Positions 248 to 43,746 of a stretch of 64,000 bases of DNA are shown in pieces (position 1 is the stretch's first letter; every line of letters starts with the position of its first letter). Under the pieces are notes generated by a model. That model saw only the letters and a program-made list of their open reading frames with translations, did not search any database and was not told where the DNA came from. The position numbers and the translations under genes are program-made. This DNA comes from Candidatus Omnitrophota bacterium (GTDB lineage Bacteria; Omnitrophota; Gorgyraeia; Gygaellales; Profunditerraquicolaceae). Location: positions 32,904 through 96,903 of the forward strand of contig JAUSED010000009.1 of the NCBI GenBank assembly GCA_030650425.1. The letters are read 5' to 3'.

Positions 248-727
248 GGCAGGTGGAATGTGGTCGCCCCGCTTTCGGCGGGGAGGAAAGTCCGGGCTCC
301 GGAGGATAGCGCAGTAGGGTAATGCCTACCCTTTGGTAACTAACCAAAGAGGATTATCCCGCAAGGTTAGCTTTTAAAAGCTAACCTTGCGGGATCATTG
401 CCTGAGATGTAAACGCAGGCAATGAGAGCCACAGAGACGAGTAGCCGTTGAAGATTGTGATGAGTAAGATCCTGAGCCGCCTATGGCGGCTCAGGATCAT
501 CTCGCAGTCTTCGACTGCGAGATGAAACGAGGCAATCTCTGCGTGGAGCAAGGCGAATAGGAGATAATCTACTAGGTATGTTGAGTGGAACGCGCTGGTC
601 CGGCGCGTCATTAATCTCGGGTATTAAGCTGCTTGAGCTTCGATGGTAACATCGGCGTCGAGAGGAATGATCACTAATCGATAGCGAAAAATCGCATCAA
701 GACAGAACCCGGCTTATTTCACCTGCT
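247..727 (+). ncRNA. rnpB: RNase P RNA, bacterial type A, with extra inserted hairpins (about 481 nt)
   Basis: The universally conserved GGAAAGTCCGGGCTCC is at 286-301. The 3' end ACAGAACCCGGCTTAT...TTCACCTGC resembles E. coli M1 RNA. The P1 helix pairs GCAGGTG (250-256) with CACCTGC (720-726). A T-run follows. Additional perfect hairpins lie at 350-400, 460-495 and 497-525. Confidence 0.85.
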
Positions 728-765
728 TTTTTTAATTTGAGCTAAACATAATAAGGAGGAATCAA

Positions 766-15467: not shown

Positions 15468-18400
15468 TTATACTAAGTAAATATCTATCTTACTGATCTG
15501 GCGTGATCTTATTGCTTCCGCGTATGGCGAGGGTATAAGCGAAGAATTAAATTCGATAGGCTTATCTTTATCCCAAAGGATAACTTTAATAATTTGCGCC
15601 GCATGCTTGCCAAAGGTATCTTTTCTTTTAGGGTTATGATAGGTAACGTTGATTTTGCCTAGGAAATTAAAACTGTAATTACCTCTTTTGTTAAATAGCC
15701 AGCCGTTAAGTTTAGGCTCAAACCTTAAAGCTAATTTATCATTTTCTAGGAAGAAAGGGTTCTTGCCGATATTCATTGTCAGCCATATTTGGAGGAATTC
15801 CGCGGTTGACCCTGAGAGCCGGGCGACAAATCCGTTTCCGTGCAGTTTTTTATCGGGAAAGGCGCTGCTCACTAAAAAAGAGGAGTTTTCTAAAATACTT
15901 CTTCCATAAACAGCGGGTTTCTGAAAAGGGATAAGCACATTTTTAAAATCCGCGTAGAACTCTTCATATAGCCCTGTCTTTAAAAGCTCCAAAAGGTATT
16001 TATATTCCATATGCAGCCAGATGGATTCATTTTCCAGCCAGCCCGGGGTAAAGATCCGGCATCTTCCGATATCTTCCGGCATATTTCCTAAAGCCGCGGT
16101 TACCTTATACATCTTAAGTTTTTGATCAAAGAGCCCGCTATTTTTTGTCCCCAAGTGAATCTTACGGGCTTTCTCCTGATTATCAGCGAGCCTAAGTCCG
16201 TGCATTTGCGTCTCAAGGAATAGCGGAAGCTTAATTTGCCTAAATTCAGTTGGTTTGATAAAATGCTCGTCGCCAGTTTTGTAGGTAATCACTTCGTTGA
16301 TAAAATAACCGCAATAGGTTTTTTTCTTTTCATCCCAAGCCTTATTTATCCCGGCATCGATTTGCTTGAGCAATGTATCGATAATTCCGATTATTTCGCG
16401 GGGAGAGATTTCTCTTTCATTTCCGCTAACACCCATTTTGGTTAAGAGGCGGTAATTTTCTTTAGCCGAGTGGGTTTGGTCCCACCAACTATAATCATCA
16501 ATCTTATTATTAGATAAATCCAGGGTGAGCTGGTTAAGCCCGCTTAAAAGCGCGTAAATCTCTTCGGTTATATTCAACCTACCAACGCCGGTTTTTTGCA
16601 GAGCGCCTTGAATGAAAAGGCAGAGCCGTTTTAACTCGAATGTCTCGCAAAGCGACGAACCAAAGAGGGCAGGAAGGCCGTTTAGCGAGTCAAACCAATT
16701 AGGTTTATCCGCCTCCATTTCTATTCCTATACCGAATGGATCAAGGGAAGCGAATTTATTAGCAACTAGACAGAGTAGCTTATTAATTAATACTGTTTCA
16801 TAGACTTGCTCTCCTTGGGACAAGGCTCTTACTAGATGGGGAGATTCACGCCGCTTATGGAGTGCCTCTTTTTTAAAGTTATCGTTAACAACCGAATGTA
16901 ATTGTCGGGGTTTACCATTATAAAGAAGGTATTTTTCACTGCGCGGCTTAACCACTTCGGAATTATCGAAAAAAGTGAATTTTCTCTCTTCAAAAACTAT
17001 TTTTTTAAGCTCTTCCGGATAAACTTTTAAATAACTTTCCAGGATATCAAGGTTATAATGCCAATGGTCGCTCCAAAATCCTTCTCCGTGTTCAGCTTCA
17101 TCAATTTTAAGCGAAGAAGCGATGACTAGGTCGAGCAATTCGTCATAAGTTGCGTTGAGCTTGATCTTGTTATCTTCAATGAAGAGAATAAGCTCGCCGG
17201 GAGTAAATTTCTTCTCAAGGAATGAAAGTATCCTGTCGATTTTATTTTCGGGAGCAATGTTATTTAGTTTGGCCCTAAGGTTTTCTTTATCTTTCAGGAT
17301 AAAAATTGATCCCTTTACGGTTAGGGGATTAAAACCGTCTAACTGGATTAAGTTAAAGAGGGTAGTAACATTTTCATCTTTTATTTCAGGATTAAACCAG
17401 ATGTCGTTCCTGCGGTTCTGGTTTAAATCGCGGTAGTTCCCGTTTCCCTGAGCGAAGTAGGTAGGGGCGATCTGGAATTTATTATAATCGCGCTCAGGAT
17501 CCCCGTGTTTACGCGCATAAAGGTAAAATGTTTTCCCTGATTTAAAAGTAAGAGGATAGCCGCCGCGCATCAGGTTATCCAGATAGGTTTGTTGAGCATA
17601 GAGATCGAATACTTTTGAGCTTGAGGAAGTATGGATATCGTTCATTAATTCTTCAATAATCCGCCTGTTTTCTGCTTTCTTTTTTTCGAGGTAACCGCTG
17701 GAGGTAATTTTAGGGATAGCCTTATTGAGCGCCTCAAGGCTGCGCATGTAGCCAATCACTGAGTATAGGGTTTTTTCTTCCTCTTTTGCTAATTTTAGAT
17801 TTAGAAAAGAGAAGGCGGAAGGAGTTTTAGCGTTGAGCTTTTTAGACGCGGAAGCGCCGAGCCCCTTATTTTTAATAAAATTAATCGGTAAGGAAAAATC
17901 GGTGATTTCGGCGAAAACATCTTCAGCATCAATTATTGGTTGGGTAAGTTTTATTTGATTGCCTTCCGAAGTAAAACCTAAGTAAAAATTACCCTCGTTA
18001 ATATGTATAACTTCCGGCCGGTCAACTGGATCGACCTTAAGCCGGTAAAAAGGTGCTTTATTTTTTAGATTTTCTACCTCCATCCACGCTTCGATGGTCC
18101 GGGACATTTTTTTCAAGAAAAAGTTGTTCGTTCCAAAAGGGATTATTTGAGGTAAACCATCAATCAGCTCGATCTTTTTATCGGTTCTAGAGGTATTTTC
18201 TATGGTTAAAATCCGGCTAAGGCCGGCGTAGTTATCCGACGGGATATTGAAATATTCAACCCTTACTTTCAACCCTAAGGTAGAATTGGTTTCTTCAAGC
18301 GATAGCCCCCATGGGCTGATGAGCATTTTATTATGAATATTATAGTTAAGATTGCTAAAGCCGTTGTGAAAAGGTTCGTAAAAAATAGTTTTAGCTTGGG

Positions 18401-18716
18401 TAGATATTTTAATGAAAGTGCGGAAGCCTTGGCTGCTAACGAGTTGCCAGGCTTTATTCGCCGGGAGGAATTCCAGGATGGCATGGTCTTTATCTTTGAT
18501 CCCAAAACTTGAGATAGCCTGACCGCGGTTGACATAAAAGGTCCACATTGGTATGCCGTATTTACCGGCTATACCGGGAAAGAAATTGGAAAAGGGCTTG
18601 GCGTAGTTATAGTTTTCGATAACGAACTGGCCAGCCTCATTCAGGTAATATTTAGGTGTTTGAGTGGATATTTTCATCTGAAGATATTTTAGCCGATTTA
18701 GGCCTTTTGTCCACAA
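15468..18716 (-). CDS. Large cytoplasmic protein (1082 aa) with a glycoside hydrolase/phosphorylase-like (GH94 / (alpha/alpha)6-barrel) appearance
   Basis: No signal peptide. The N-terminal region resembles cellobiose/chitobiose phosphorylase N-domains. Central NYRDLNQNRRND and WLHMEYKYLLELL segments resemble the catalytic barrel. The assignment is tentative. Confidence 0.35.
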   Translation of the reverse strand: MWTKGLNRLKYLQMKISTQTPKYYLNEAGQFVIENYNYAKPFSNFFPGIAGKYGIPMWTFYVNRGQAISSFGIKDKDHAILEFLPANKAWQLVSSQGFRTFIKISTQAKTIFYEPFHNGFSNLNYNIHNKMLISPWGLSLEETNSTLGLKVRVEYFNIPSDNYAGLSRILTIENTSRTDKKIELIDGLPQIIPFGTNNFFLKKMSRTIEAWMEVENLKNKAPFYRLKVDPVDRPEVIHINEGNFYLGFTSEGNQIKLTQPIIDAEDVFAEITDFSLPINFIKNKGLGASASKKLNAKTPSAFSFLNLKLAKEEEKTLYSVIGYMRSLEALNKAIPKITSSGYLEKKKAENRRIIEELMNDIHTSSSSKVFDLYAQQTYLDNLMRGGYPLTFKSGKTFYLYARKHGDPERDYNKFQIAPTYFAQGNGNYRDLNQNRRNDIWFNPEIKDENVTTLFNLIQLDGFNPLTVKGSIFILKDKENLRAKLNNIAPENKIDRILSFLEKKFTPGELILFIEDNKIKLNATYDELLDLVIASSLKIDEAEHGEGFWSDHWHYNLDILESYLKVYPEELKKIVFEERKFTFFDNSEVVKPRSEKYLLYNGKPRQLHSVVNDNFKKEALHKRRESPHLVRALSQGEQVYETVLINKLLCLVANKFASLDPFGIGIEMEADKPNWFDSLNGLPALFGSSLCETFELKRLCLFIQGALQKTGVGRLNITEEIYALLSGLNQLTLDLSNNKIDDYSWWDQTHSAKENYRLLTKMGVSGNEREISPREIIGIIDTLLKQIDAGINKAWDEKKKTYCGYFINEVITYKTGDEHFIKPTEFRQIKLPLFLETQMHGLRLADNQEKARKIHLGTKNSGLFDQKLKMYKVTAALGNMPEDIGRCRIFTPGWLENESIWLHMEYKYLLELLKTGLYEEFYADFKNVLIPFQKPAVYGRSILENSSFLVSSAFPDKKLHGNGFVARLSGSTAEFLQIWLTMNIGKNPFFLENDKLALRFEPKLNGWLFNKRGNYSFNFLGKINVTYHNPKRKDTFGKHAAQIIKVILWDKDKPIEFNSSLIPSPYAEAIRSRQISKIDIYLV

Positions 18717-24041: not shown

Positions 24042-25027
24042 TTGTTCTAGGGCTTGAGACTTCCTGCGATGAGACCTCCGCGGCGGTGGTGAAAAACGGG
24101 AAGAAGATAATTTCTTGCGCGGTGGCCTCCAGCCTTGAATTCCATAAAAAATACGGAGGGGTAATTCCGGAGATTGCTTCGCGCGCTCAACTGGAAACAA
24201 TTACCGGAATCACGGATTGCGCGATACGGGAAGCGAAAATAAAATTAAGGGATATTAACTTGATTAGCGTAACCAGCGGCCCGGGGTTAATCGGTTCATT
24301 GTTAGTGGGCATTTCATTCGCCAAGGCCCTATCTTTAAGTTTAAATAAGCCATTATTGGGGATTAATCACGTCTATAGCCATTTTTACGCTAATTTCCTA
24401 AGCGGGGAAAAGATAAGATTACCATTTATGGCTTTAGTTGTTTCCGGCGGCCATACAAACTTATTTTTTGTCCGCGATTTTGATAAAATAGAGCTCCTCG
24501 GCCAGACTCAGGACGATGCCTGTGGAGAGGCCTTTGATAAAGTAGCTAAGATTCTAAATTTGGGTTACCCCGGGGGCCCAGCGATCGAGAAAATAGCCCT
24601 GCGCGGGAATCCCGATAAGATTAAATTTAATTGTTCCGGCACGAAGAATGAATTAGATTTTAGTTTTAGCGGAATTAAAACCGCCGTCTTGTATTATGTT
24701 AGAGATCGAAAGACAAAAGTCAGAAGACAGGATACTGCTGATCTTGCGGCGAGTTTTCAGGAAGCTGTCATTGATACGCTTGTGAGAAAGGCACTCTTAG
24801 CCTGCAAGTTAAAAAAAATAAACCGGTTGGTTATAGGTGGAGGGGTAGCGGCAAATAGCCGGTTAAGGGGTAAATTTAATCAAGCTGCCCGGAAATTTAA
24901 TTTAAACTGTTATTTCCCGCCAAGCTCTCTTTGTATGGATAACGCCGCGATGATCGCGGGCTTAGCATATCAACTATTTAAAAAAGGCCATTGCTCAGGC
25001 TTAGGCTTGAGCGCGGAATTAAACTAG
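24038..25027 (+). CDS. tsaD: tRNA N6-adenosine threonylcarbamoyltransferase
   Basis: LGLETSCDETSAAVV and a GGVAAN region match the Kae1/Gcp family. Confidence 0.9.
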   Translation: MIVLGLETSCDETSAAVVKNGKKIISCAVASSLEFHKKYGGVIPEIASRAQLETITGITDCAIREAKIKLRDINLISVTSGPGLIGSLLVGISFAKALSLSLNKPLLGINHVYSHFYANFLSGEKIRLPFMALVVSGGHTNLFFVRDFDKIELLGQTQDDACGEAFDKVAKILNLGYPGGPAIEKIALRGNPDKIKFNCSGTKNELDFSFSGIKTAVLYYVRDRKTKVRRQDTADLAASFQEAVIDTLVRKALLACKLKKINRLVIGGGVAANSRLRGKFNQAARKFNLNCYFPPSSLCMDNAAMIAGLAYQLFKKGHCSGLGLSAELN

Positions 25028-25047
25028 CCATTGACAAGGGGGTTAAA

Positions 25048-25497
25048 ATGCTTACAGACAGCCAAATTATTGTTCGTTTGGTACTAAGCGTAATTTTAAG
25101 CGGGTTGATTGGATTCGAAAGGCAACTGCACAAAAGGAATGCCGGGTTGCGCACGCATATTTTAGTTGCTTTGGGTTCTTGTCTTATAATGTTGACATCC
25201 ATCTATGTTTTTGATATATATAAAGATATAGCCAAGGCTGACCCGGCGCGGATTGCCGCGGGAGTAATCACCGGTATTGGGTTTTTAGGCGCGGGTACGA
25301 TTATTCGCGATAGAGAGGGAGTTAGAGGCCTTACTACCGCTGCCAGCCTTTGGGTTGTGGCAGGTATTGGTTTAGCTGCTGGATGCGGTTTTCTTAACGC
25401 GTCAGTTTACGCTACGGTTTTAGCTTTGATTGTCCTTTTCTTTTTAAGATACTTTGAGTCAATAGTTTTTAACGACGATAATGATAAGCAGCACTAA
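25048..25497 (+). CDS. MgtC/SapB family membrane protein
   Basis: VRLVLSVILSGLIGFERQ is the MgtC signature. The start is chosen at the ATG at 25048, which has an AAGGGGG RBS. Confidence 0.8.
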   Translation: MLTDSQIIVRLVLSVILSGLIGFERQLHKRNAGLRTHILVALGSCLIMLTSIYVFDIYKDIAKADPARIAAGVITGIGFLGAGTIIRDREGVRGLTTAASLWVVAGIGLAAGCGFLNASVYATVLALIVLFFLRYFESIVFNDDNDKQH

Positions 25498-25503
25498 ACA
25501 TTG

Positions 25504-25557
25504 ATACCGCACATAGTGCGGTATCAAACAAGCCATAAGCACCAGAGGTATGGCTTG
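25504..25557 (+). terminator. Two consecutive stem-loops after mgtC
   Basis: GATACCGCACATAGTGCGGTATC and CAAGCCATAAGCACCAGAGGTATGGCTTG. There is no strong U-tract, so the terminator call is tentative. Confidence 0.3.
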
Positions 25558-25573
25558 TTTGAGGAGGTGGGAT

Positions 25574-26077
25574 ATGGCTTTTAAGAAAAAGCTGGAAGAA
25601 AAGATTTTAGATGTCGATGCCTCCATGCAAGGGACATTAAGTTTTAAAGACGCGGTAAATTTACGGATTAACGGGAAATTTGAAGGCACTCTTGAAACTA
25701 AAGGGAATTTGACCATAGGCCCTACCGCGGTAGTAACCGCGGATATTAACGGTGATAATATTATTATCGGAGGCAGGGTCAGAGGGAGGATCACCGCCAG
25801 AGAGAGACTAACCATTTTACCTGCAGCTATGGTTGAGGGAGATATCTTTCCGGCTAAATTAAATATTGCTGAGGGCGCGATTTTAGAAGGCAGGTGCTGC
25901 ATGCTGCATGATTTTCTAAATGCCGAGGAGCTGGCCAGGTATCTGGAAGTTGATCTTAATTCTATCATGGAATGGGCAAATTCGGGTAAGGTCCCGGGCC
26001 ACAAAGAGGGCGATGCCTGGAAATTCGAGAGAAAGGCGATTGATTCTTGGGTAGGTTCGGGGAAGATCGATAAATAA
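25574..26077 (+). CDS. Bactofilin-domain protein fused to a C-terminal excisionase/MerR-type HTH
   Basis: Bactofilin beta-helix repeats (GNLTIGPTAVVTADINGDNIIIGGRVRGRITARERLTILPAAMVEGDI) are followed by LNAEELARYLEVDLNSIMEWANSGKVPGHKEGDAWKFERKAIDSW, an HTH_17-like domain. A GAGGAGG RBS precedes the start. Confidence 0.6.
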   Translation: MAFKKKLEEKILDVDASMQGTLSFKDAVNLRINGKFEGTLETKGNLTIGPTAVVTADINGDNIIIGGRVRGRITARERLTILPAAMVEGDIFPAKLNIAEGAILEGRCCMLHDFLNAEELARYLEVDLNSIMEWANSGKVPGHKEGDAWKFERKAIDSWVGSGKIDK

Positions 26078-26088
26078 AAAATTAAACT

Positions 26089-26397
26089 ATGAGCAATGAA
26101 AAACTTTTAACGGTAAGAGAAGTTTCCCTGCTATTAAGTATTTCGGAAAAAGAGGTGATCGATCTGGCAGAGACCGGGATTATACCGGCGTACAAGGTAG
26201 GAGGAGTTTACCTGCGTTTTAAGAGAGAACAGGTGCTGGGATACCAGAAGACACTGCGTCCGTTTACCGCTAAAGTTGAATCAGTCTCCAACAGCCCGCT
26301 CCAGGATAAAATAAGCGATTTTTTCTATTTCAACGATTTCTATATACTCTCCGCGGGCCTGATAGTTTTATTACTCGTAATCATCCTGGGGAGTTAA
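26089..26397 (+). CDS. HTH (excisionase-type) DNA-binding protein with a C-terminal transmembrane helix
   Basis: LTVREVSLLLSISEKEVIDLAETGIIPAYKVGGVYLRFKREQV is an HTH_17 domain. A hydrophobic segment LSAGLIVLLLVIILG lies at the C-terminus. Confidence 0.45.
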   Translation: MSNEKLLTVREVSLLLSISEKEVIDLAETGIIPAYKVGGVYLRFKREQVLGYQKTLRPFTAKVESVSNSPLQDKISDFFYFNDFYILSAGLIVLLLVIILGS

Positions 26398-26408
26398 ATC
26401 CAGATACA

Positions 26409-27077
26409 ATGTCTTCAAAATCCGGTTTTTGCGATTTAGGATTTGCCAAGGTGGATATAGATAGAAAGCAACGCCGTGGTTTTGCCGAAGCAATCTACTG
26501 CGCGGGTAAAACCCGGGAACATATTAAAAATATAGCCTGCCAATTGATCAAGAACAGGCAGGATGTATTGCTTACCAGATTAGATAAGCAAACCTTCGAT
26601 TATCTTAAAAAACAAATTCCCGGTTTAAAATATAATCTTTTAGCCAAGATTGGTTTTTTAACCAAGAGGCCTAGCTTAGCAAAAAAAGGATTAGTTTTAG
26701 TTATTTCAGCCGGCACGGCGGATCTGCCGGTAGCGGAAGAGGCGGCAGTAACCCTGGAGGTTATGGGTAATCGGGTAAAAAGATTGTATGATGTGGGTGT
26801 AGCGGGAGTGCATCGTATTATGCACCATGCCGGGCTTTTAAAAAAAGCTAAGGTGATTATTGTGGCTGCCGGAATGGAAGGAGCCTTAGCCAGCTTAGTC
26901 AGCGGATTGGTAAGCGTTCCTGTTGTCGCGGTTCCGACTAGTTGTGGATACGGCGCAAGTTTCGCCGGGCTTTCCGCGTTATTGACGATGCTCAATAGCT
27001 GTTCTCCGGGAATTGCTACGGTGAATATCGATAACGGTTTCGGCGCCGGATATTTTGCCAGTTTGGTAAATAAATGA
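26409..27077 (+). CDS. larB: LarB-like PurE-family carboxylase (nickel-pincer nucleotide cofactor biosynthesis)
   Basis: An N-terminal LGFAKVDIDRKQRRGFAEAIYCAGKT region plus a PurE-like domain ending NIDNGFGAGYFA, as in LarB. Confidence 0.6.
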   Translation: MSSKSGFCDLGFAKVDIDRKQRRGFAEAIYCAGKTREHIKNIACQLIKNRQDVLLTRLDKQTFDYLKKQIPGLKYNLLAKIGFLTKRPSLAKKGLVLVISAGTADLPVAEEAAVTLEVMGNRVKRLYDVGVAGVHRIMHHAGLLKKAKVIIVAAGMEGALASLVSGLVSVPVVAVPTSCGYGASFAGLSALLTMLNSCSPGIATVNIDNGFGAGYFASLVNK

Positions 27078-27475
27078 TTTCATTAAAAGAAGCTATAAAA
27101 TTTCATGGGCATCTTGGGCCATATTTAATTTTGGGGATTATAGCCGGAAATTTAGGCTTAAAGAAGTTAGGCGTTAAGAAATATTTTGATTTGCGGGTTT
27201 TGGTTTACGGAGCAAATAAAAAACCAAAATCTTGCCTGATTGACGGTTTGCAGTTATCCACCGGAGCTACCTATGGGAAGGGGAACATTCAAAAATACGC
27301 GGCTAAGGAAATAAAGATAGTCATCCGGAATTTAAAAAACAATAAGGCTGTTATTATCACTTTGGGAGAATTCTTAGAGGAAAGACTAGCTGCTTTAAAA
27401 GGCCATAGCGACTCGGAAAATTTCGCTAAGGGATTATTAAAATCAGATTATCGCGAAATATTTAGATTAAACTAA
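27074..27475 (+). CDS. FwdE/FmdE-domain protein (small, Cys-less variant)
   Basis: FHGHLGPYLILG corresponds to the FHGHxCPG motif of the formylmethanofuran dehydrogenase subunit E family, with Cys replaced by Leu. It overlaps the larB stop. Confidence 0.5.
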   Translation: MISLKEAIKFHGHLGPYLILGIIAGNLGLKKLGVKKYFDLRVLVYGANKKPKSCLIDGLQLSTGATYGKGNIQKYAAKEIKIVIRNLKNNKAVIITLGEFLEERLAALKGHSDSENFAKGLLKSDYREIFRLN

Positions 27476-27488
27476 GGAGAATATAACC

Positions 27489-28817
27489 ATGGCTTTGTCA
27501 GGTTTGGATATTTATAAGTTGCTTCCTAAAACAAATTGCCGCGAATGCGGTTTTGCTACTTGTTTAGCTTTCGCTATGCAACTGGCCAAGAAAGCTGTTG
27601 GTATTGATAAATGTCCGCATTTGACCTCTGAAGTAAAGGGAAAGTTAGAAGCGCAATCCCAGCCGCCGATAAAATTAATTACCATTGGCTCAGGAGAAAC
27701 GCGATTAGAGATCGGGAATGAAAATGTGATGTTCAGGCATGAAGAAAAATTTTTCCGGCCTGCCGGAATCGGTTTTATAGTTGAGGATAATTCTACGGAC
27801 GCCGAAATTAAAACCAAGATAGAAAAAATCAATGAACTAAAATTTGAGCGCGTCGGCCAGCGTTTAGAGGTTAATCTCGTAGCCATAAGGCAGAATAAGG
27901 ATGCCAAAAGATTTATTGACGTTGTTCAGCTTGTATCAGTAAACACTCCTTTAAGCCTGGTCTTGATGAGCCCTGATGCGCAAGCCTTAAAAGGGGCTTT
28001 GGAGATTTTAAAAGGCAGGAACCCTTTAATTTATCATGCTACCAAAGAAAATTTAACCGCGCTTACGCAGCTAGCCAAGGATTACAAGGTACCCTTAGTT
28101 GCTCAAGGTGACGATCTTGAGAAAGTCAGCGAATTAACAGCTGAGCTTTCGAAACAAGGTGTAAATGATTTAATTATAGAGACTGGTAAAAAGCCGATAT
28201 CCGAAAAGGTATGGGATCTGACTCAAATTAGAAGGCTTGCTTTAAAAAAATCTAACCGCGGCCTTGGCTATCCTTCTTTAGTTGTGGTTGAGCAGAATGA
28301 TGTTTACGCGGAGGCGCAAGAAGCGGCAACCTATATTACAAAATACGCCGGGATTGTTTTGCTTAAAGGAATCGAGTCTTGGGCTGTTTTGTCGCTTTTG
28401 ACCTTGCGGCAAAATATTTATACTGATCCGCAAAAACCGCTTCAGATCGAACCTAAGCTTTATCCGATAGGGCAGGTAAACGATAAGTCTCCGGTTTTAG
28501 TCACGACTAATTTTTCACTTTCATATTATACTGTTTTGGGGGAAGTGGAGGCAAGTAAGATTCCCGCGTATATTATCAGTATAGATACAGAAGGAATGTC
28601 AGTATTGACTGCTTGGGCTGCGGAAAAATTTACCCCTCAAAAGATTAACGAATCGATAAACAAATTCGGGGTAAAGGACGCGATTTCGCATAAGCGCTTG
28701 GTTATTCCCGGGTATGTCGCGGTAATGAGCGGAGAGTTGCAGGACGAATCAGGATTTGAAATTATCGTCGGGCCGAAAGAAGCGGCAGGAATACCATCAT
28801 TTTTGAAGAATTTATAA
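27489..28817 (+). CDS. acsC: Corrinoid iron-sulfur protein large subunit (acetyl-CoA decarbonylase/synthase gamma)
   Basis: The N-terminal [4Fe-4S] motif LPKTNCRECGFATCLAFAMQLA, TIM-barrel and corrinoid-binding regions. The length of 442 aa is typical. Confidence 0.85.
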   Translation: MALSGLDIYKLLPKTNCRECGFATCLAFAMQLAKKAVGIDKCPHLTSEVKGKLEAQSQPPIKLITIGSGETRLEIGNENVMFRHEEKFFRPAGIGFIVEDNSTDAEIKTKIEKINELKFERVGQRLEVNLVAIRQNKDAKRFIDVVQLVSVNTPLSLVLMSPDAQALKGALEILKGRNPLIYHATKENLTALTQLAKDYKVPLVAQGDDLEKVSELTAELSKQGVNDLIIETGKKPISEKVWDLTQIRRLALKKSNRGLGYPSLVVVEQNDVYAEAQEAATYITKYAGIVLLKGIESWAVLSLLTLRQNIYTDPQKPLQIEPKLYPIGQVNDKSPVLVTTNFSLSYYTVLGEVEASKIPAYIISIDTEGMSVLTAWAAEKFTPQKINESINKFGVKDAISHKRLVIPGYVAVMSGELQDESGFEIIVGPKEAAGIPSFLKNL

Positions 28818-28825
28818 CTACGCTA

Positions 28826-28877
28826 GGGGACACTTTCCTTTAGCAGCTTAGTAAGAGCCCTGACGGAAAGTGTCCCC
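28826..28877. repeat. GGGGACACTTTCC-26 nt-GGAAAGTGTCCCC inverted-repeat element (intergenic copy 2)
   Basis: It has the same 13-bp arms and the same AGAGCCCTGAC spacer tail as the copy at 18745-18797. It lies between acsC and the RACo gene. Confidence 0.8.
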
Positions 28878-28901
28878 TGATAGTGCCCTGTAGTGTGAGA
28901 T

Positions 28902-30806
28902 ATGAACAAATTTAAAGTTACCTTTCAACCGAATAATAAAACCGTCGAGGTACCCAAAGATACGACGGTTCTTTCGGCAGCGATCTCTTGCGGAGTGTCT
29001 ATAAAGTCGGATTGCGGAGGGGACGGGGTCTGCGGCAGGTGTAAGGTTGTGGTAAAGAAGGGTGAGGTTTTAACTCAGCCCACAGGAATGCTTAATGATG
29101 AAGAGAGAAAACGTAATATATACCTAGCTTGTATTACTACTATACATAGCGATTTGGAAGTAGAGGTTCTACCTGAATCAAGAATTGATCCAAGTTCCAG
29201 GCTTAAAGGTATTTATTCGAAATCCGAAGAGATAGAATCGAAAGAAGCAGTTTCAAGCGATAAAGTATTCAAACACTCGCCACTATCCACAAAATTATAT
29301 CTTGAGTTACCCCCGCCAAATTTGAATGATACAGCCAGCGACTTAGACAGGCTTTTTCGCGCTATTCGTAAAGCGCAGGACCTGCCGGTTATGCAAACAG
29401 GTTTAAGCAATATCCGGCAGCTCGGAGAATTATTACGCGGCTGCGAATGGAAAGTGACCGTTACTTTAGGCAAGAGAAATGATACGGTAGAGGTTGTCTT
29501 GGTTGAACCGCAGGATACCTCGAACAAAAATTTCGGGGTATGTTTTGACATCGGCACTACCACTATCTCCGGCCAGCTTGTGGATTTAAATTCCAAAAAG
29601 ATATTGGGGACTAAGGCGACCTATAATCAGCAAGCGAGCTTTGGTTCGGATGTAATCACGCGCATAATCTACGCGCGGCAGAACGAAGGAATCGAAAAAC
29701 TGCACAGCGCGGTAACCGGGACGATGAACCTGATGATTAAAGAGCTTACCGTTGAACATAAAGTGAATTTAAATGACCTGACTTGCGTTGTTTGTACCGG
29801 AAATACGACAATGATCCATTTATTGCTTCTGGTGGACCCTACTTATATAAGGCGTGAGCCGTATGTACCGACGGCGAATTTCCTGCCGGTTTTAAGGGCT
29901 TCCGAAGCAGGGATCATCATTAATCCTCGCGGGCTTTTAGCATGCGTACCGGGTGTATCAAGTTATGTCGGAGGAGACACTACCGCCGGGGTTCTTTCCA
30001 GCGGCCTCTACAATGAAACTGATCTGTGCATTCTGATTGATATAGGCACTAATGGAGAAATTGCCCTCGGGAATAAGGATTTTTTGGTTGCCTGCGCGGC
30101 TTCCGCCGGCCCGGCGTTTGAAGGAAGCGGAGTAAGCTGCGGTATGCGGGCCTCAAACGGCGCAATCCAAAAGGTTAAGATAAGCCCCAAAGACTTCTCA
30201 GTAACCTGTTCGACGATCGGTGAAGCTAAGCCTCGCGGCATATGCGGTTCCGGATATATCGATTTAATCGCCCAGATGCTTGAAACAGGCGTAATAGATA
30301 GAGGCGGGAAAATTAAATTGGAAAACCATAAACGCGTGCGTGATTCCGAATCCGGGAAAGAATTTGTGCTGGTTTTTAAAGAAGACTCGGCTTCTTCGAA
30401 AGATATAGTTATTAACGAAGCGGATATAGAAAACTTAAAACGCGCCAAGGCCGCGATTTATTCGGCTACCGCTGTTTTAGTCAAGCATATGAATTTTATG
30501 CTTGACGATGTTAAGAAGATCTTTATCGCCGGCGGATTTGGCACATCTTTGGATATAGAGAGCGCGATAAAGATAGGGCTGCTTCCCGATCTTGTAAGAA
30601 GCAAGTTTGTGTTTATCGGTAATAGCGCTTTAGCGGGTGCCCGTCAGATGCTTCTATCGGCAGAGGCAACAAAGTTGGCGGAGGAGATAGCGCGTAAGAT
30701 CACCTACTTTGAATTATCCGTTGATTCCGGATATATGGATGAATATATGGCGGCTTTGTTTTTCCCGCATACGGATTTAAATAGATTCAGGCCGCGGGAT
30801 AAATAA
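28902..30806 (+). CDS. Reductive activator of corrinoid iron-sulfur protein (RACo): 2Fe-2S ferredoxin plus ASKHA ATPase
   Basis: An N-terminal plant-type ferredoxin (CGGDGVCGRCKV) and a C-terminal ASKHA-fold domain (DIGTTTISGQL, DIGTNGEI). The length is 634 aa. Confidence 0.8.
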   Translation: MNKFKVTFQPNNKTVEVPKDTTVLSAAISCGVSIKSDCGGDGVCGRCKVVVKKGEVLTQPTGMLNDEERKRNIYLACITTIHSDLEVEVLPESRIDPSSRLKGIYSKSEEIESKEAVSSDKVFKHSPLSTKLYLELPPPNLNDTASDLDRLFRAIRKAQDLPVMQTGLSNIRQLGELLRGCEWKVTVTLGKRNDTVEVVLVEPQDTSNKNFGVCFDIGTTTISGQLVDLNSKKILGTKATYNQQASFGSDVITRIIYARQNEGIEKLHSAVTGTMNLMIKELTVEHKVNLNDLTCVVCTGNTTMIHLLLLVDPTYIRREPYVPTANFLPVLRASEAGIIINPRGLLACVPGVSSYVGGDTTAGVLSSGLYNETDLCILIDIGTNGEIALGNKDFLVACAASAGPAFEGSGVSCGMRASNGAIQKVKISPKDFSVTCSTIGEAKPRGICGSGYIDLIAQMLETGVIDRGGKIKLENHKRVRDSESGKEFVLVFKEDSASSKDIVINEADIENLKRAKAAIYSATAVLVKHMNFMLDDVKKIFIAGGFGTSLDIESAIKIGLLPDLVRSKFVFIGNSALAGARQMLLSAEATKLAEEIARKITYFELSVDSGYMDEYMAALFFPHTDLNRFRPRDK

Positions 30807-30807
30807 T

Positions 30808-31560
30808 ATGGGGTGGGTTATAGCGATGGCGGGTAAGGGTGGAACAGGTAAGACTACTGTCGCAGCCCTGCTTGTGCGTATAATTAAAGAAAATAATCTT
30901 GGCTCGATTCTAGCGGTTGATGCAGACCCAAATAGTAATCTTGGCGAATTATTGGGTTTGGAGGCAAAAGAAAGCATCGGCTGTATACTCGATGATATAG
31001 CCAGTAATCCGCAAATCGTTCCCGTTAATATGGGTAAGGACGCTTTTATCGAATACCGCGTTCAGCGCTCGATAATCGAGGCGGATGGCTTTGATCTTTT
31101 GACGATGGGCAGGCCTGAGGGCCCGGGCTGCTATTGTTATGTAAATAACTCCCTGCGTAATGTTATGGATAGGCTGATCAATGACTATGATTTTGTGGTC
31201 ATTGATAATGAAGCGGGGTTAGAACATTTATCCCGGCGCACTACCAGACGGGTGGATACTTTATTGGTTATTTCGGATGCCTCTATTATAGGCCTAAAAG
31301 CAGCGAAAAGAATCGTTGAGTTGACCAAAGAGCTGAAAATTAAAACTAAAAAAGAACTCTTAGTGGTTAACCGAAGCAACCCAAATATTGAACCGGATAA
31401 AATTAAAGGTTTAAACTTGGATTACTTGGGCCGCTTACCCATAGATTCTGAGGTTGAAAGTTTAAGTAAGTTGGGGGCATCGTTGGTGAATTTAAATAAA
31501 GATAGCGCGATGCTAAGTACTTTACGAAAACTAGGAGAAAAGATATGGCTTTGCAATTAA
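30808..31560 (+). CDS. cooC: CooC/AcsF-type nickel-insertion ATPase (MinD family)
   Basis: Deviant Walker A AMAGKGGTGKTT and the CooC-specific CYCYV motif. Confidence 0.8.
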   Translation: MGWVIAMAGKGGTGKTTVAALLVRIIKENNLGSILAVDADPNSNLGELLGLEAKESIGCILDDIASNPQIVPVNMGKDAFIEYRVQRSIIEADGFDLLTMGRPEGPGCYCYVNNSLRNVMDRLINDYDFVVIDNEAGLEHLSRRTTRRVDTLLVISDASIIGLKAAKRIVELTKELKIKTKKELLVVNRSNPNIEPDKIKGLNLDYLGRLPIDSEVESLSKLGASLVNLNKDSAMLSTLRKLGEKIWLCN

Positions 31561-32486
31561 TCACGGAAAAGTGGTCAGGCGAAGTTTCGGTAGTCACTAT
31601 CGGCGCGGCTAATCAGGAGGGTGGAACACGTTCCCACGCGGTAAAGATCGGTGGGGAGAAATCGCTTCCTTACTTGTTCAAAGAAGGAAGTCTTCCGAAT
31701 AAGCCTCAGATTGCCTTTGAAATTTTAGATATCATGCCTAGTGATTGGCCTAATGCAGTTAGCGCTCCCTATGGTAAAACTTTAAATGATCCTTTGGAAT
31801 GGGCGGATAAATGTGTGCGGGATTATCAAGCCGGTATTTTATGCGTTAGATTACTTGGATCTCATCCGGATTTCGGAAATAAATCTCCTGAAGAAGAAGC
31901 GCAGCTGATTAAGAAATTATTAAAAAAAGTGAGCGTACCTTTAGTTATTTTAGGAAGCGGAGATGACGCTAAAGACAATCTTGTTTTACCGGCTATATCC
32001 GAAGCAGCCAAAGGTGAGCGTTGTCTAATCGGTTCAGCGGTACAGGATAATTATAAAACTATTGTGGCCAGCGTTTTAGCCGACGGGCATAATATCATTG
32101 CCGAATCCCCGATAGATATTAATATCGCCAAGCAGTTGAATATTTTGATTTCGGATATGGGGCTGGCTTTGGAACGTATTGTGATGAATCCTACCATTGG
32201 GGCTTTAGGTTACGGGTTGGAATACGCCTATTCGATTATGGAGCGTTCCCGCCTTGCCGCGCTGGCAGGAGATAAGACTATGGCTTCTCCATTTATCTGT
32301 TTTGTGGGACAGGAGGCCTGGAGGGCTAAAGAAGCTAAGGCGGATGATTTGCCTGATCAGGGGATAATCTGGGAAACACTGACCGCGACGGCCTTAATTC
32401 AGGCAGGCGCTGATTTATTAGTTATGCGGCATCCTAAGGCGGTTGAAAAAGTAAAAGAATATATAGATAATTTATTCCGGAGTTAA
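31545..32486 (+). CDS. acsD: Corrinoid iron-sulfur protein small subunit (acetyl-CoA decarbonylase/synthase delta)
   Basis: It is about 310 aa with a TIM-barrel small-subunit pattern. It is adjacent to acsC and acsE. Confidence 0.75.
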   Translation: MALQLITEKWSGEVSVVTIGAANQEGGTRSHAVKIGGEKSLPYLFKEGSLPNKPQIAFEILDIMPSDWPNAVSAPYGKTLNDPLEWADKCVRDYQAGILCVRLLGSHPDFGNKSPEEEAQLIKKLLKKVSVPLVILGSGDDAKDNLVLPAISEAAKGERCLIGSAVQDNYKTIVASVLADGHNIIAESPIDINIAKQLNILISDMGLALERIVMNPTIGALGYGLEYAYSIMERSRLAALAGDKTMASPFICFVGQEAWRAKEAKADDLPDQGIIWETLTATALIQAGADLLVMRHPKAVEKVKEYIDNLFRS

Positions 32487-32489
32487 AAT

Positions 32490-33278
32490 ATGTTGATCAT
32501 CGGTGAGTTGATTAATGGGATGTACGCTAATATCGGTAAAGCGATTAAGGAGCGCGCTAAAGCCGAAATCCAGAAATGCGCCTTGGAGCAGATAGAAAGC
32601 GGAGCAGACGCTTTAGATATTAATTGCGGCCCGGCATCAAAGCAACCGCTTATCGATATGCCGTGGTTGGTTGAAAGCGTGCAAGAGGTGACGGATAAAC
32701 CGTTGTGCCTGGATTCAAGCAAGCCGCAGGTTATTGAAGTTGGCCTTGAGGCGGCAAGGAATAAAACGATTATTAATTCGGTTACAGCGGACCCGGAAAA
32801 GTTAGATGTGATTATTCCGTTAGCCAAGAAATATAATTCCCAGCTTATCGGGATTACCATCAGTAAAAAAGGTATCCCGCAGAATAAAGACCAGCGCCTC
32901 GAATTAGCCGCGGCGATTGTGGCCAGCTGCGCGGAAAAAGATTTTCCTGTTGACAACTTGTTCCTTGATCCGATAGTCCTTCCGGTGAATGTCGCTCAGG
33001 CGCAGCTAAAAGATATTTTAGAGTCAATCCGCGATTTTAAGATAATCTCCGAGCCTTCCCCTAAAACGACTTTAGGATTGAGCAATGTTTCGCAAGGCAC
33101 AAACGTCAGGAGCCTGATTAACCGGACCTTTCTTACAATGGCTATCGCCTATGGCTTGGATTCGGCTATATTAGACCCTAAAGATAAAGAGTTGATGGAT
33201 GCCTTGATTACCGCCGAGCTTATTTTGAATAAACACATTTATTGCGATTCGTATTTAGACGCTTATAAGAAAAAGTGA
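32490..33278 (+). CDS. acsE: Methyltetrahydrofolate:corrinoid/iron-sulfur protein methyltransferase
   Basis: A pterin-binding (DHPS-like) barrel with GADALDINCGP. The 262 aa length matches AcsE. Confidence 0.8.
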   Translation: MLIIGELINGMYANIGKAIKERAKAEIQKCALEQIESGADALDINCGPASKQPLIDMPWLVESVQEVTDKPLCLDSSKPQVIEVGLEAARNKTIINSVTADPEKLDVIIPLAKKYNSQLIGITISKKGIPQNKDQRLELAAAIVASCAEKDFPVDNLFLDPIVLPVNVAQAQLKDILESIRDFKIISEPSPKTTLGLSNVSQGTNVRSLINRTFLTMAIAYGLDSAILDPKDKELMDALITAELILNKHIYCDSYLDAYKKK

Positions 33279-33293
33279 ATTTGAGTTAGTTAT

Positions 33294-33370
33294 GGCGGCG
33301 TAACTCAGCCTGATAGAGTAGTCGGCTCATACCCGATTTGTCGCTGGTTTAAATCCAGCCGCCGCCACCA
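33294..33370 (+). tRNA. tRNA-Met or tRNA-Ile2 (anticodon CAT) with an encoded CCA; atypical D and T loops
   Basis: Acceptor stem GGCGGCG/CGCCGCC, anticodon loop CTCATAC. The D-loop lacks GG18-19 and the T-loop is TTTAAAT with no C56. The G1-C72 pair argues against an initiator tRNA. Confidence 0.7.
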
Positions 33371-43199: not shown

Positions 43200-43272
43200 G
43201 CCGGCGTAGCTCAGTTGGTAGAGCGTCTGTTTTGTAAACAGATGGTCGGGGGTTCGATTCCTCTCGCCGGCT
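43200..43272 (+). tRNA. tRNA-Thr (anticodon TGT)
   Basis: Acceptor GCCGGCG/CGCCGGC, D-arm GCTC-AGTTGGTA-GAGC, anticodon loop TTTGTAA, T-loop TTCGATT. Confidence 0.85.
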
Positions 43273-43290: not shown

Positions 43291-43578
43291 GGGTAGGTAC
43301 CCAAGTGGCCAAAGGGGGCAGACTGTGTAAACGCAGCGTCATGTCGAAAGGCGTGATGGAAAAGTAGGTGAATTCAGGGAACCCCTTAGTATATCTTTAC
43401 TGAGGGCAATCCTGAGCCAAGCCCGCCAATTTTATACGGCGGGAAGGTGCAGAGACTAAGCGCCTACCACCTAAAGCTTACAGCTATGGTGATGAGATAG
43501 TCCAAGCCTCAAGGTAACTTGAGGGCTCTTGAAATCTGCTGCACTTGTGCTTCAGAGGTTCGAATCCTCTCCTGCCCA
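43291..43578 (+). tRNA. tRNA-Tyr (anticodon GTA) interrupted in the anticodon loop by a group I intron
   Basis: Exon 1 at 43291-43326 gives acceptor GGGTAGG, a class-II 3-bp D-stem, and anticodon stem GCAGA plus CTGT. Exon 2 at 43532-43578 gives AAA, TCTGC, a long variable arm hairpin, T-arm AGAGG-TTCGAAT-CCTCT, and acceptor CCTGCCC. The spliced loop is CTGTAAA. Confidence 0.8.
43327..43531 (+). ncRNA. Group I intron (subgroup IC3-like, 205 nt) inside the tRNA-Tyr anticodon loop
   Basis: P1 pairs exon CTGT with internal guide sequence GCAG, giving a U·G wobble at the 5' splice site. It ends in G before exon 2. The core GGAAGGTGCAGAGACTAAGCGCCTACCACCTAAAGC...CTATGG...GATAGTCC closely resembles the R and S (P7) elements and 3' core of the Azoarcus tRNA-Ile intron. 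No ORF is present. Confidence 0.8.
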
Positions 43579-43672: not shown

Positions 43673-43746
43673 GCGGGTGTAGTTCAATGGTAGAACAATA
43701 GCCTTCCAAGCTATATATGTCGGTTCGATTCCGATCACCCGCTCCA
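43673..43746 (+). tRNA. tRNA-Gly (anticodon TCC) with an encoded CCA
   Basis: Acceptor GCGGGTG/CACCCGC, D-arm GTTC-AATGGTA-GAAC, anticodon loop CTTCCAA, T-loop TTCGATT. Confidence 0.85.

Follow-up and report, generated by a model that had tools for sequence, protein, structure and literature searches.

Does a bactofilin that carries a DNA-binding fold on each of its subunits bind DNA, or has the fold been put to another use? The question is raised by two adjoining genes in a 64,000-nucleotide (nt) stretch of contig JAUSED010000009.1 from a Candidatus Omnitrophota bacterium, a stretch that we call the window throughout. Gene 1 encodes a bactofilin joined to a helix-turn-helix (HTH) domain, and gene 2 encodes a second HTH domain followed by a transmembrane (TM) helix; both names are used below for the genes and for their products. 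An earlier interpretation of the letters alone, the sequence-only reading, had proposed that the pair anchors or segregates DNA. We found that the domains and folds agree with that proposal, that the two genes form a conserved unit, and that the recognition helices of both HTH domains have been remodelled. Our tentative preference is for a membrane-attached bactofilin scaffold in which the winged helices are protein-coupling heads and gene 2 is a tail-anchored partner. Beyond the domain and fold assignments, the functional statements are what we infer.

Domains and folds of the two proteins

Both open reading frames (ORFs) named in the sequence-only reading are present in the window.

25574–26077, + strand: gene 1, bactofilin–winged-helix fusion, 167 aa (Pfam, homologues, AlphaFold)
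25574–25603, + strand: N-terminal peptide MAFKKKLEEK of gene 1, candidate membrane-targeting sequence (alignment)
25604–25897, + strand: bactofilin beta-helix of gene 1, residues 11–108 (Pfam, phmmer, Foldseek)
25913–26056, + strand: C-terminal MerR/excisionase-type winged helix of gene 1, residues 114–161 (Pfam, Foldseek)
26089–26397, + strand: gene 2, tail-anchored winged-helix membrane protein, 102 aa (Pfam, homologues)
26104–26256, + strand: winged helix of gene 2, residues 6–56 (AlphaFold, Foldseek)
26296–26331, + strand: juxtamembrane helix of gene 2, residues 70–81, with the aromatic motif DFFYFNDFY (alignments, AlphaFold)
26335–26391, + strand: C-terminal TM helix of gene 2, residues 83–101 (hydropathy, AlphaFold)

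Residues 11–108 of gene 1 matched the Pfam family Bactofilin (PF04519) with 88.7 bits (cut-off, 27.9; E = 3.1e-25). AlphaFold modelled gene 1 with a mean pLDDT of 92.5 as a beta-helix (residues 11–108) and a winged helix (residues 114–161); residues 11–110 consisted entirely of beta strands with pLDDT values of 93–98. The phmmer search aligned residues 11–109 with BacA (2n3d) and the Thermus bactofilin (6ria), and Foldseek superposed the model on 2n3d with a target-normalised TM-score of 0.78 and an rmsd of 2.7 Å. The counterpart of L104 of gene 1 in the alignment is F130 in BacA and F105 in the Thermus bactofilin; this residue lies in the polymerisation interface, and replacing it by Arg blocks polymerisation (PMC12448750; 6ria entry title). 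Of 21 divergent family members, 14 have Phe there and the others Leu, Val or Ile. By domain, fold and interface residue, gene 1 is a true member of the bactofilin family, and the assignment made in the sequence-only reading stands.

The N-terminal peptide MAFKKKLEEK was nearly invariant among 15 aligned homologues. In divergent members, the N-terminus starts with Met, continues with 1–3 residues and then enters a Lys/Arg-rich stretch; the residues after the initial Met are small or hydrophobic in about three-quarters of them. This Lys-rich N-terminus resembles the membrane-targeting sequence of bactofilins, for which the published global consensus is MFSKKKK (PMC12448750), so that membrane binding by gene 1 can be proposed from the likeness. 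Polymerisation and membrane binding are both plausible for gene 1. It shares the beta-helix and the hydrophobic polymerisation residue with the canonical bactofilins of Caulobacter crescentus (BacA) and Thermus thermophilus, and its Lys-rich N-terminus is similar to their membrane-targeting sequence. The described bactofilins have a short disordered tail after the beta-helix, whereas gene 1 has a folded winged helix about 5 residues further on. This spacing holds in the clade of the window, and divergent members have 10–25 additional linker residues. With the winged helix so close to its C-terminal end, the beta-helix could be hindered in forming the C-to-C polymerisation interface.

The second domain of gene 1 and the first of gene 2 both belong to Pfam HTH_17 (cut-off, 27 bits), with 38.6 bits for residues 114–160 of gene 1 (E = 1.3e-9) and 35.9 bits for residues 6–53 of gene 2 (E = 9e-9). 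The fold of this family, which consists of helix 1, helix 2, a two-stranded wing and helix 3, was found in both models; the winged helix of gene 1 has the order b-a-a-b-b-a in its AlphaFold model. When each whole protein was compared with solved structures using phmmer, the HTH relatives were not reached. A profile built from the two domains reached RacA (E = 3.6e-7), BldC (E = 4.2e-6 and 7.8e-6) and Pukovnik Xis (E = 6.5e-5), and a CarH/LitR-like protein was also among its best solved relatives. Foldseek superposed the heads on BldC with an rmsd of 1.5 Å for gene 1 and 1.0–1.1 Å for gene 2. Further fold matches were RdfS, Xis, RacA, the HTH of a small terminase and the MerR-like protein CbpM; over the closest folds (BldC, Xis and RdfS), the rmsd was 1.0–1.5 Å for 48–51 residues. 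These results indicate that the C-terminal domain of gene 1 is a true HTH_17 domain by sequence and fold, which bears out the earlier assignment. The two winged helices are probably paralogues, given the shared Pfam family, the profile alignment and the shared derived residues.

Gene 2 was modelled with a mean pLDDT of 74.7. A disordered segment (residues 58–69) separates the winged helix (residues 6–56) from the juxtamembrane helix (residues 70–81), and the linker, about 13 residues in the model, is basic. The TM helix (residues 83–101) had pLDDT values of 88–94, and the Kyte-Doolittle maximum in a 19-residue window was 2.64, starting at residue 84. These values, together with the Pfam match, confirm the layout of one HTH_17 domain and a single C-terminal TM helix. 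Only 1–3 residues follow the TM helix, so essentially no domain lies outside the membrane. The TM helix is kept in distant partners. The motif DFFYFNDFY is near-invariant in alignments of gene 2; in about 1 Mb of related DNA it occurred once per locus, always in gene 2, and a search of the other proteins in that DNA gave no further copy. Like BacA, which is paired with PbpC, gene 1 thus has a membrane-spanning partner; unlike PbpC, gene 2 has no periplasmic or enzymatic domain.

Recognition helices of the two heads

If the two heads bind DNA in the manner of their solved relatives, the contact residues of those relatives should be found in them. K15 and R19 of RacA contact bases and are found without change in all RacA homologues; DNA binding of the R19A variant was not measurable, that of K15A was weak (estimated Kd of about 50 µM), and the wing residues R30, G34 and Y36 also matter (PMC4914108). 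In BldC, K26 and R30 read bases, T27, T29 and K33 contact phosphates, and H46, R47 and R48 dock the wing; the changes R30A and H46E abolish binding (PMC5859096). We aligned 93 gene 1 domains and 81 gene 2 domains with the solved references. The residues at the main positions are given below in BldC numbering, with counts of domains after each residue.

Position 26: BldC K, RacA K, Xis K, 8jbs S; gene 1 Asn 56, Ser 16, Lys 5; gene 2 Lys 73
Position 27: BldC T, RacA T, Xis T, 8jbs S; gene 1 Ser 73; gene 2 Glu 54, Asp 22
Position 29: BldC T, RacA Q, Xis R, 8jbs K; gene 1 Met 59, Leu 12; gene 2 Leu/Met/Ile/Val 78
Position 30: BldC R, RacA R, Xis N, 8jbs R; gene 1 Glu 73, Asp 11; gene 2 Asp 56, Glu 10
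Position 33: BldC K, RacA K, Xis A, 8jbs D; gene 1 Asn 67; gene 2 Glu 69
Position 41: BldC R, RacA R, Xis R, 8jbs R; gene 1 Lys/Arg 84; gene 2 Lys/Arg 80
Position 48: BldC R, RacA S, Xis R, 8jbs R; gene 1 Lys/Arg 83; gene 2 Arg 81

At the positions of BldC K26, T27, T29, R30 and K33, the window proteins have N, S, M, E and N (gene 1) and K, E, I, D and E (gene 2). The counterparts of RacA K15/R19 are Asn/Glu in gene 1 and Lys/Asp in gene 2, so that neither protein carries the residue pair of a RacA-type anchor, and neither reproduces the recognition-helix contacts of BldC; R30, K33 and H46 of BldC are missing from both heads. The net charge of the recognition helix is +3 in RacA, +2 in BldC, +2 in Xis and 0 in 8jbs, as against −2 in gene 1 and −3 in gene 2 (SEKEVIDLAET) of the window; the divergent lineages span −3 to +1 for gene 1 and −3 to 0 for gene 2. 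The isoelectric point (pI) of the winged helix is 4.9 in gene 1 (4.4–5.3 in most lineages) and about 5–8 in gene 2. The DNA-binding relatives have Thr, Gln, Arg or Lys at position 29 and then Arg (Asn in Xis), where the two heads have an exposed hydrophobic and then an acidic residue. Judged from the alignment, a recognition face that pairs a conserved hydrophobic residue with an acidic one is what protein interfaces typically show, and it would fit the major groove poorly. The remodelling and the net negative charge suggest that the heads are mainly protein couplers.

The basic residues of the wing have been retained. K36 and R43 of gene 2 are invariant and K144 of gene 1 is mostly Lys or Arg, whereas K150 of gene 1 varies in distant lineages. 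Some partners also keep Arg at position 30 of the recognition helix (loci L086 and L090, LTRMAKAG). The exposed residues of the recognition helix vary between lineages, which argues against a shared specific target site.

These residues bear directly on a RacA-like tether between nucleoid and membrane, a refined form of the proposal made in the sequence-only reading, in which the bactofilin polymer would multimerise weak winged-helix DNA binders of low specificity and the sum of their contacts would give firm binding. The tail-anchored gene 2 would supply a second DNA-binding head, and DNA would be held or organised at the membrane, and possibly segregated, in very small cells. RacA, BldC and Pukovnik Xis are the best solved matches of the winged-helix profile, with fold matches at 1.0–1.5 Å, and RacA joins a monomeric winged helix to a multimerising domain and to a membrane-associated anchor, with DNA binding that depends largely on phosphate contacts (PMC4914108). 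BldC requires cooperative multimerisation on DNA (PMC5859096), and fusion to a polymer would supply multimerisation. The wing residues kept in both families (Lys/Arg at position 41, invariant Arg at position 48 in gene 2), the basic recognition helices of some divergent lineages and the lack of any other functional domain in the module are also consistent with a tether. The loss of the RacA/BldC Lys/Arg pair, the negatively charged helices with their exposed hydrophobic residue, the acidic winged helix of gene 1 and the lack of a common target sequence across lineages speak against it, and no ParA, ParB or PadC gene lies near the pair. We regard this tether as possible but doubtful, and as the chief competitor of the scaffold. 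Most of the solved relatives bind DNA; direct DNA binding by both proteins, as claimed in the sequence-only reading, is nevertheless not established, and the replaced contact residues and the negative helices weaken the claim.

Like RacA with DivIVA, the pair combines a small MerR-like winged helix, a self-associating domain and a membrane-associated anchor; RacA multimerises by a coiled coil and is anchored through DivIVA, whereas here these parts are a bactofilin beta-helix and a tail-anchored partner. BldC, Pukovnik Xis and RdfS have the closest folds and are single-domain winged helices that form cooperative multimers. They are free-standing and basic and oligomerise on DNA, whereas the present heads range from acidic to neutral and are each joined to a polymer or a membrane anchor. 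In Myxococcus xanthus, the BacNOP bactofilins can scaffold chromosome-segregation proteins, and the BacNOP–PadC–ParABS system is one in which a bactofilin polymer positions DNA-associated machinery (PMC5703909). The DNA link there is a separate ParB-like adaptor, PadC, with ParB and ParA; the pair in the window is flanked instead by genes for CtpA, a polysaccharide deacetylase, TsaD, MgtC, LarB, FmdE and acetyl-CoA synthase. A CbiA/ParA-like gene downstream belongs to the acetyl-CoA synthase cluster. The analogy to a DNA-anchoring scaffold drawn in the sequence-only reading has some support in the match to RacA, and no ParB, PadC or ParA partner adjoins the pair. That the pair is a self-contained device for tethering or positioning the chromosome at the membrane without ParABS, by means of a DNA-binding bactofilin polymer and a tail-anchored DNA-binding partner, is in our judgement rather unlikely.

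Conservation and organisation of the gene pair

Homologues of gene 1 numbered 1939 among 90%-identity clusters; the best 120 were 79–100% identical, and all had both Pfam domains. Their source names are generic ("polymer-forming cytoskeletal protein" or "excisionase family DNA binding protein"). In a filter-free search of 1.8 billion cluster representatives, about 20 clusters (50% identity) covered both domains of gene 1 at 37–58% identity and lengths of 161–199 aa, and their named members were all labelled Omnitrophota or PVC group. We also scanned one genome per GTDB species with patterns from the bactofilin half (tblastn, E ≤ 1e-3) and obtained 418 loci that encode a relative of gene 1. The best 80 of these match residues 1–162 or more at 75–89% identity and come mostly from Omnitrophota genomes; about 20 of the 80 bear generic or other titles (e.g., "uncultured Planctomycetales" and "bacterium isolate") and are taken to be mislabelled or unclassified. 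Gene 2 had 1153 homologues, the best 120 of which were almost all 101–104 aa long with 60–90% identity, and the named ones share the taxonomic labels of the gene 1 homologues. So far, the gene pair has turned up only in Omnitrophota.

Gene 2 directly follows gene 1 in all 85 related loci, and the fusion in these loci, from dozens of species, is a single ORF of 165–171 aa with 75–100% identity to the window protein. The gene order of this clade is GatB, CtpA, polysaccharide deacetylase, TsaD, MgtC, the pair, LarB, (FmdE) and the acetyl-CoA synthase genes. Since this neighbourhood is itself conserved, the adjacency within the clade alone could be inherited gene order. In divergent lineages, the fusion is followed by a small HTH_17 or HTH-like gene in 7 of 9 cases, as listed below.

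L088: P0269 fusion, 37% identity to the window; SPOR and PDZ/TPR upstream; full-length HTH_17 partner, 97 aa
L092: P0245 fusion; BatD, TPR and MgtC upstream, PDZ downstream; full-length HTH_17 partner, 114 aa
L093: P0244-type fusion; intein-like genes upstream, GreA downstream; full-length HTH_17 partner, 94 aa
L094: P0249 fusion; DNA polymerase I downstream; full-length HTH_17 partner, 119 aa
L095: P0251-type fusion; SNase downstream; full-length HTH_17 partner, 101 aa
L086: P0241 fusion; short contig; HTH-like start of the partner only, cut by the contig end
L090: P0254 fusion; short contig; HTH-like start of the partner only, cut by the contig end

The two genes thus still adjoin where the surroundings differ, which indicates that the pair is a conserved unit. 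The full-length partners have a common layout: a winged helix, a Lys/Arg-rich linker, an aromatic motif and a C-terminal TM helix. The motif occurs as DFFYFNDFY, DLFYFNDFY, DFWRYNGFY and LLAYNDFY, with the more divergent GLWQWVKNSS in L088. In the remaining two lineages, L096 (P0258 type) and L097 (P0259 type), another membrane protein stands downstream in place of the tail-anchored HTH partner.

Several observations were made beside this survey. The protein downstream of the fusion in L096 (L096:4001–5399) has an N-terminal TM helix and a coiled coil, and small multi-pass proteins follow the fusion in L097 (L097:2564–4143). The fused winged helix of L096 is basic (pI 9.9), and a phage-type integrase lies nearby. 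The fusion protein of the short contig L091 (71–1103) is that of L090 (P0254). The HTH-like ORF downstream of it is without a TM tail and overlaps the end of the fusion gene by a few bases, and a separate gene called 250 nt downstream is unrelated. This arrangement may be an artefact, either of the assembly or of a frameshift. In two divergent lineages, the pair has beside it a gene for a secreted PDZ/TPR protein of about 330 aa, upstream in L088 (3975–4946) and downstream in L092 (5984–6985); the two copies are homologous (26% identity, E = 1e-31). No homologue of it was found in the 64-kb window, and the PDZ-containing protease CtpA sits three genes upstream of the pair in the window clade.

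Median identities to the window proteins were 80% for gene 1, 72% for MgtC, 70% for LarB, 68% for AcsC, 68% for RACo, 66% for TsaD and 60% for gene 2. Gene 1 had the top identity of ten neighbourhood genes in 77 of the 80 loci compared, which were the best by gene 1 similarity and therefore biased in its favour. That its identity is the highest among these genes, over at least 80 species of Omnitrophota, suggests a core role in the cell.

The survey also bears on the explanation that the HTH domains are relics of a mobile element or a defence system (an excisionase, a recombination directionality factor or a MAD1-like protein of the MADS system) and that the adjacency to a bactofilin is without function. 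The best NCBIfam matches, both sub-threshold, were antiphage_MADS1 (47.1 and 35.3 bits) and an excisionase domain, PADLOC gave weak mad1 matches (E = 0.0017 and 5.9e-5), and the divergent fusion gene of L096 lies near the integrase. The MADS1 scores (NF047737) are far under the 80-bit cut-off, however, and the neighbours in the 85 loci are the housekeeping genes of the order given above, without a MADS context; the anti-phage assignment was therefore rejected. A role as excisionase or recombination directionality factor was rejected as well, as no integrase occurs in the conserved neighbourhood of the 85 loci and L096 is the only locus near one. The fusion also stays an intact single ORF across dozens of species, and the pair persists in differing genomic contexts. 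The conserved synteny and sequence conservation largely refute a relic, to which we give almost no credence.

The initiation signals of the two genes differ. A longer start of gene 1 exists at 25550; we favour the ATG at 25574 because almost every one of the top 120 homologues has the resulting length of 167 aa and because the GAGGAGG motif ends 6 bases before this ATG.

25561–25567, + strand: Shine-Dalgarno sequence of gene 1, GAGGAGG (read from the sequence)

The ribosome-binding site that the sequence-only reading had credited to the pair is thus present, and a strong Shine-Dalgarno-like motif precedes gene 1 in 84 of 92 related loci. Just 21 of 87 loci have such a motif before gene 2. Gene 2 begins 11 nt past the stop codon of gene 1 in the window, and the gap has a median of 15 nt and is at most 30 nt in 72 of 87 pairs; the two genes have the layout of an operon. 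As the ribosome-binding site of gene 2 is weak or absent, gene 2 would be made in smaller amounts than gene 1, and the contrast would fit an abundant polymer subunit and a scarcer partner.

Upstream of the pair, the window has the following features.

24991–25497, + strand: MgtC-family gene, TM domain only (Pfam MgtC, E = 1.7e-41)
25502–25526 and 25527–25559, + strand: two tandem perfect hairpins in the spacer between mgtC and gene 1 (RNA fold)

The hairpins have a minimum free energy of −35 kcal/mol (z = −5.0). They had been described as flanking the pair; they are real, lie only upstream of it and are not conserved. No second copy was found in the rest of the window, and Rfam gave no match at this position. 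The gap between mgtC and gene 1 has a median of 27 nt in relatives, which indicates that the hairpins are not a conserved feature of the module; they are probably a local terminator or mRNA-stabilising element outside it. An MgtC gene stands directly upstream of the pair in 81 of the 85 close loci and in L086, L090, L092 and L094, and not in L088, L093 and L095. MgtC may be a functional partner or a matter of inherited gene order.

Proposed function of the pair

In the scaffold that we tentatively prefer, gene 1 would polymerise on the cytoplasmic face of the membrane by way of its N-terminal peptide, and the polymer would display a regular array of winged-helix heads. Gene 2, the scarcer protein, would join the array through its own head, and its TM helix would fix the array to the bilayer. 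The heads would be mainly protein–protein connectors and not sequence-reading DNA binders; a low-specificity DNA contact through the basic wing residues (K36 and R43 of gene 2; K144 and K150 of gene 1) could add to the coupling. Precedents exist for these steps. Bactofilins bind the cytoplasmic parts of bitopic membrane proteins, as BacA binds PbpC, and client binding can replace the membrane-targeting sequence of a bactofilin (PMC12448750). In Bacillus subtilis, BacE and BacF bind the HTH protein BacR at the membrane and lower its DNA binding (PMC13649987). CbpM, which is among the fold matches, is a MerR-like protein binder whose partner is the J-domain of CbpA.

Several points weigh against this scaffold. 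Nearly all characterised HTH_17 domains bind DNA, as do most of the close solved relatives of both winged helices, and a module that consists of polymer, membrane anchor and a pair of heads, without an enzymatic part, has no obvious cargo but DNA. Gene 2 has T8, R10, K36 and R43 without exception and K21 in at least 90% of the sequences, and all five are DNA-contact positions of BldC/RacA. Some divergent gene 1 proteins have basic recognition helices (DPKT as in BldC in P0246; R29/K30/R33 in P0258; K27/K29/K30 in P0269), so that the ancestral gene 1 domain may have bound DNA. With regard to contacts between the heads, no convincing head-to-tail charge complementarity of the BldC kind was found between the two, and BLASTP gave no alignment of one winged helix with the other.

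BacR suggests a further explanation, in which one or both winged helices would be a transcription factor sequestered on the membrane-bound polymer or by the tether, and gene expression would be coupled to the state of the envelope or the polymer. BacR is encoded beside bactofilin genes, is recruited to the membrane by BacE/BacF and moves to the nucleoid under cell-wall stress (PMC13649987); in the present loci, too, the HTH gene strictly adjoins the bactofilin gene. BacR (YhbD, DUF4004) is soluble and unfused, however, whereas one of the present HTH domains is covalently joined to the bactofilin and the other is TM-anchored, and neither protein had a DUF4004 match at E ≤ 1. The TM helix keeps gene 2 in the membrane permanently, and the protein has neither a sensor domain nor an evident release site. 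The recognition residues, acidic and variable from lineage to lineage, differ from what a regulator with a specific operator would show, and a conserved operator would find no room in the usual spacer of about 27 nt upstream of gene 1. We consider such a switch improbable.

Other features of the window

Directly downstream of the pair (26409–33300, + strand), the window encodes LarB of nickel-pincer cofactor synthesis (NCBIfam, 286.6 bits), an FmdE-domain protein and an acetyl-CoA synthase/CO dehydrogenase cluster, which suggests use of the Wood-Ljungdahl pathway. ORFs homologous to AcsC and RACo lie at 27489–30806, and the syntenic locus L002 has CooC/CbiA-like and CdhD genes. Between tRNA-Thr (43200–43272) and tRNA-Gly (43673–43746) sits a group I intron (RF00028, 89.9 bits; region 43293–43577, Rfam match 43333–43524). 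The flanks of the intron read as two tRNA halves with GTA (Tyr) in the anticodon loop, which were not called by ARAGORN, and the region appears to be an intron-containing tRNA-Tyr gene. The RNase P RNA, bacterial class A, was found at 249–730 (+ strand, 124.9 bits). The window is almost entirely plus-strand; a 1082-aa ORF (15468–18716, − strand) is one of three minus-strand ORFs of at least 200 aa.

Significance for Omnitrophota

Omnitrophota is a phylum without a cultured model, and its cell biology is poorly known; we found no literature describing a bactofilin–HTH fusion or bactofilins in this phylum. The described bactofilins act through separate clients, and a folded head on every subunit, with a neighbouring gene for a tail-anchored protein that bears a related head, would be a new wiring of the polymer to other components of the cell. 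If the heads bind each other, the pair would show plainly how a DNA-binding fold can be taken over as a connector between proteins. If the heads bind DNA, it would be a minimal link of chromosome, cytoskeleton and membrane, with the first bactofilin to contact DNA directly, and, should it tether the chromosome, a new minimal coupling of the nucleoid to the cytoskeleton or envelope in the very small cells of Omnitrophota.

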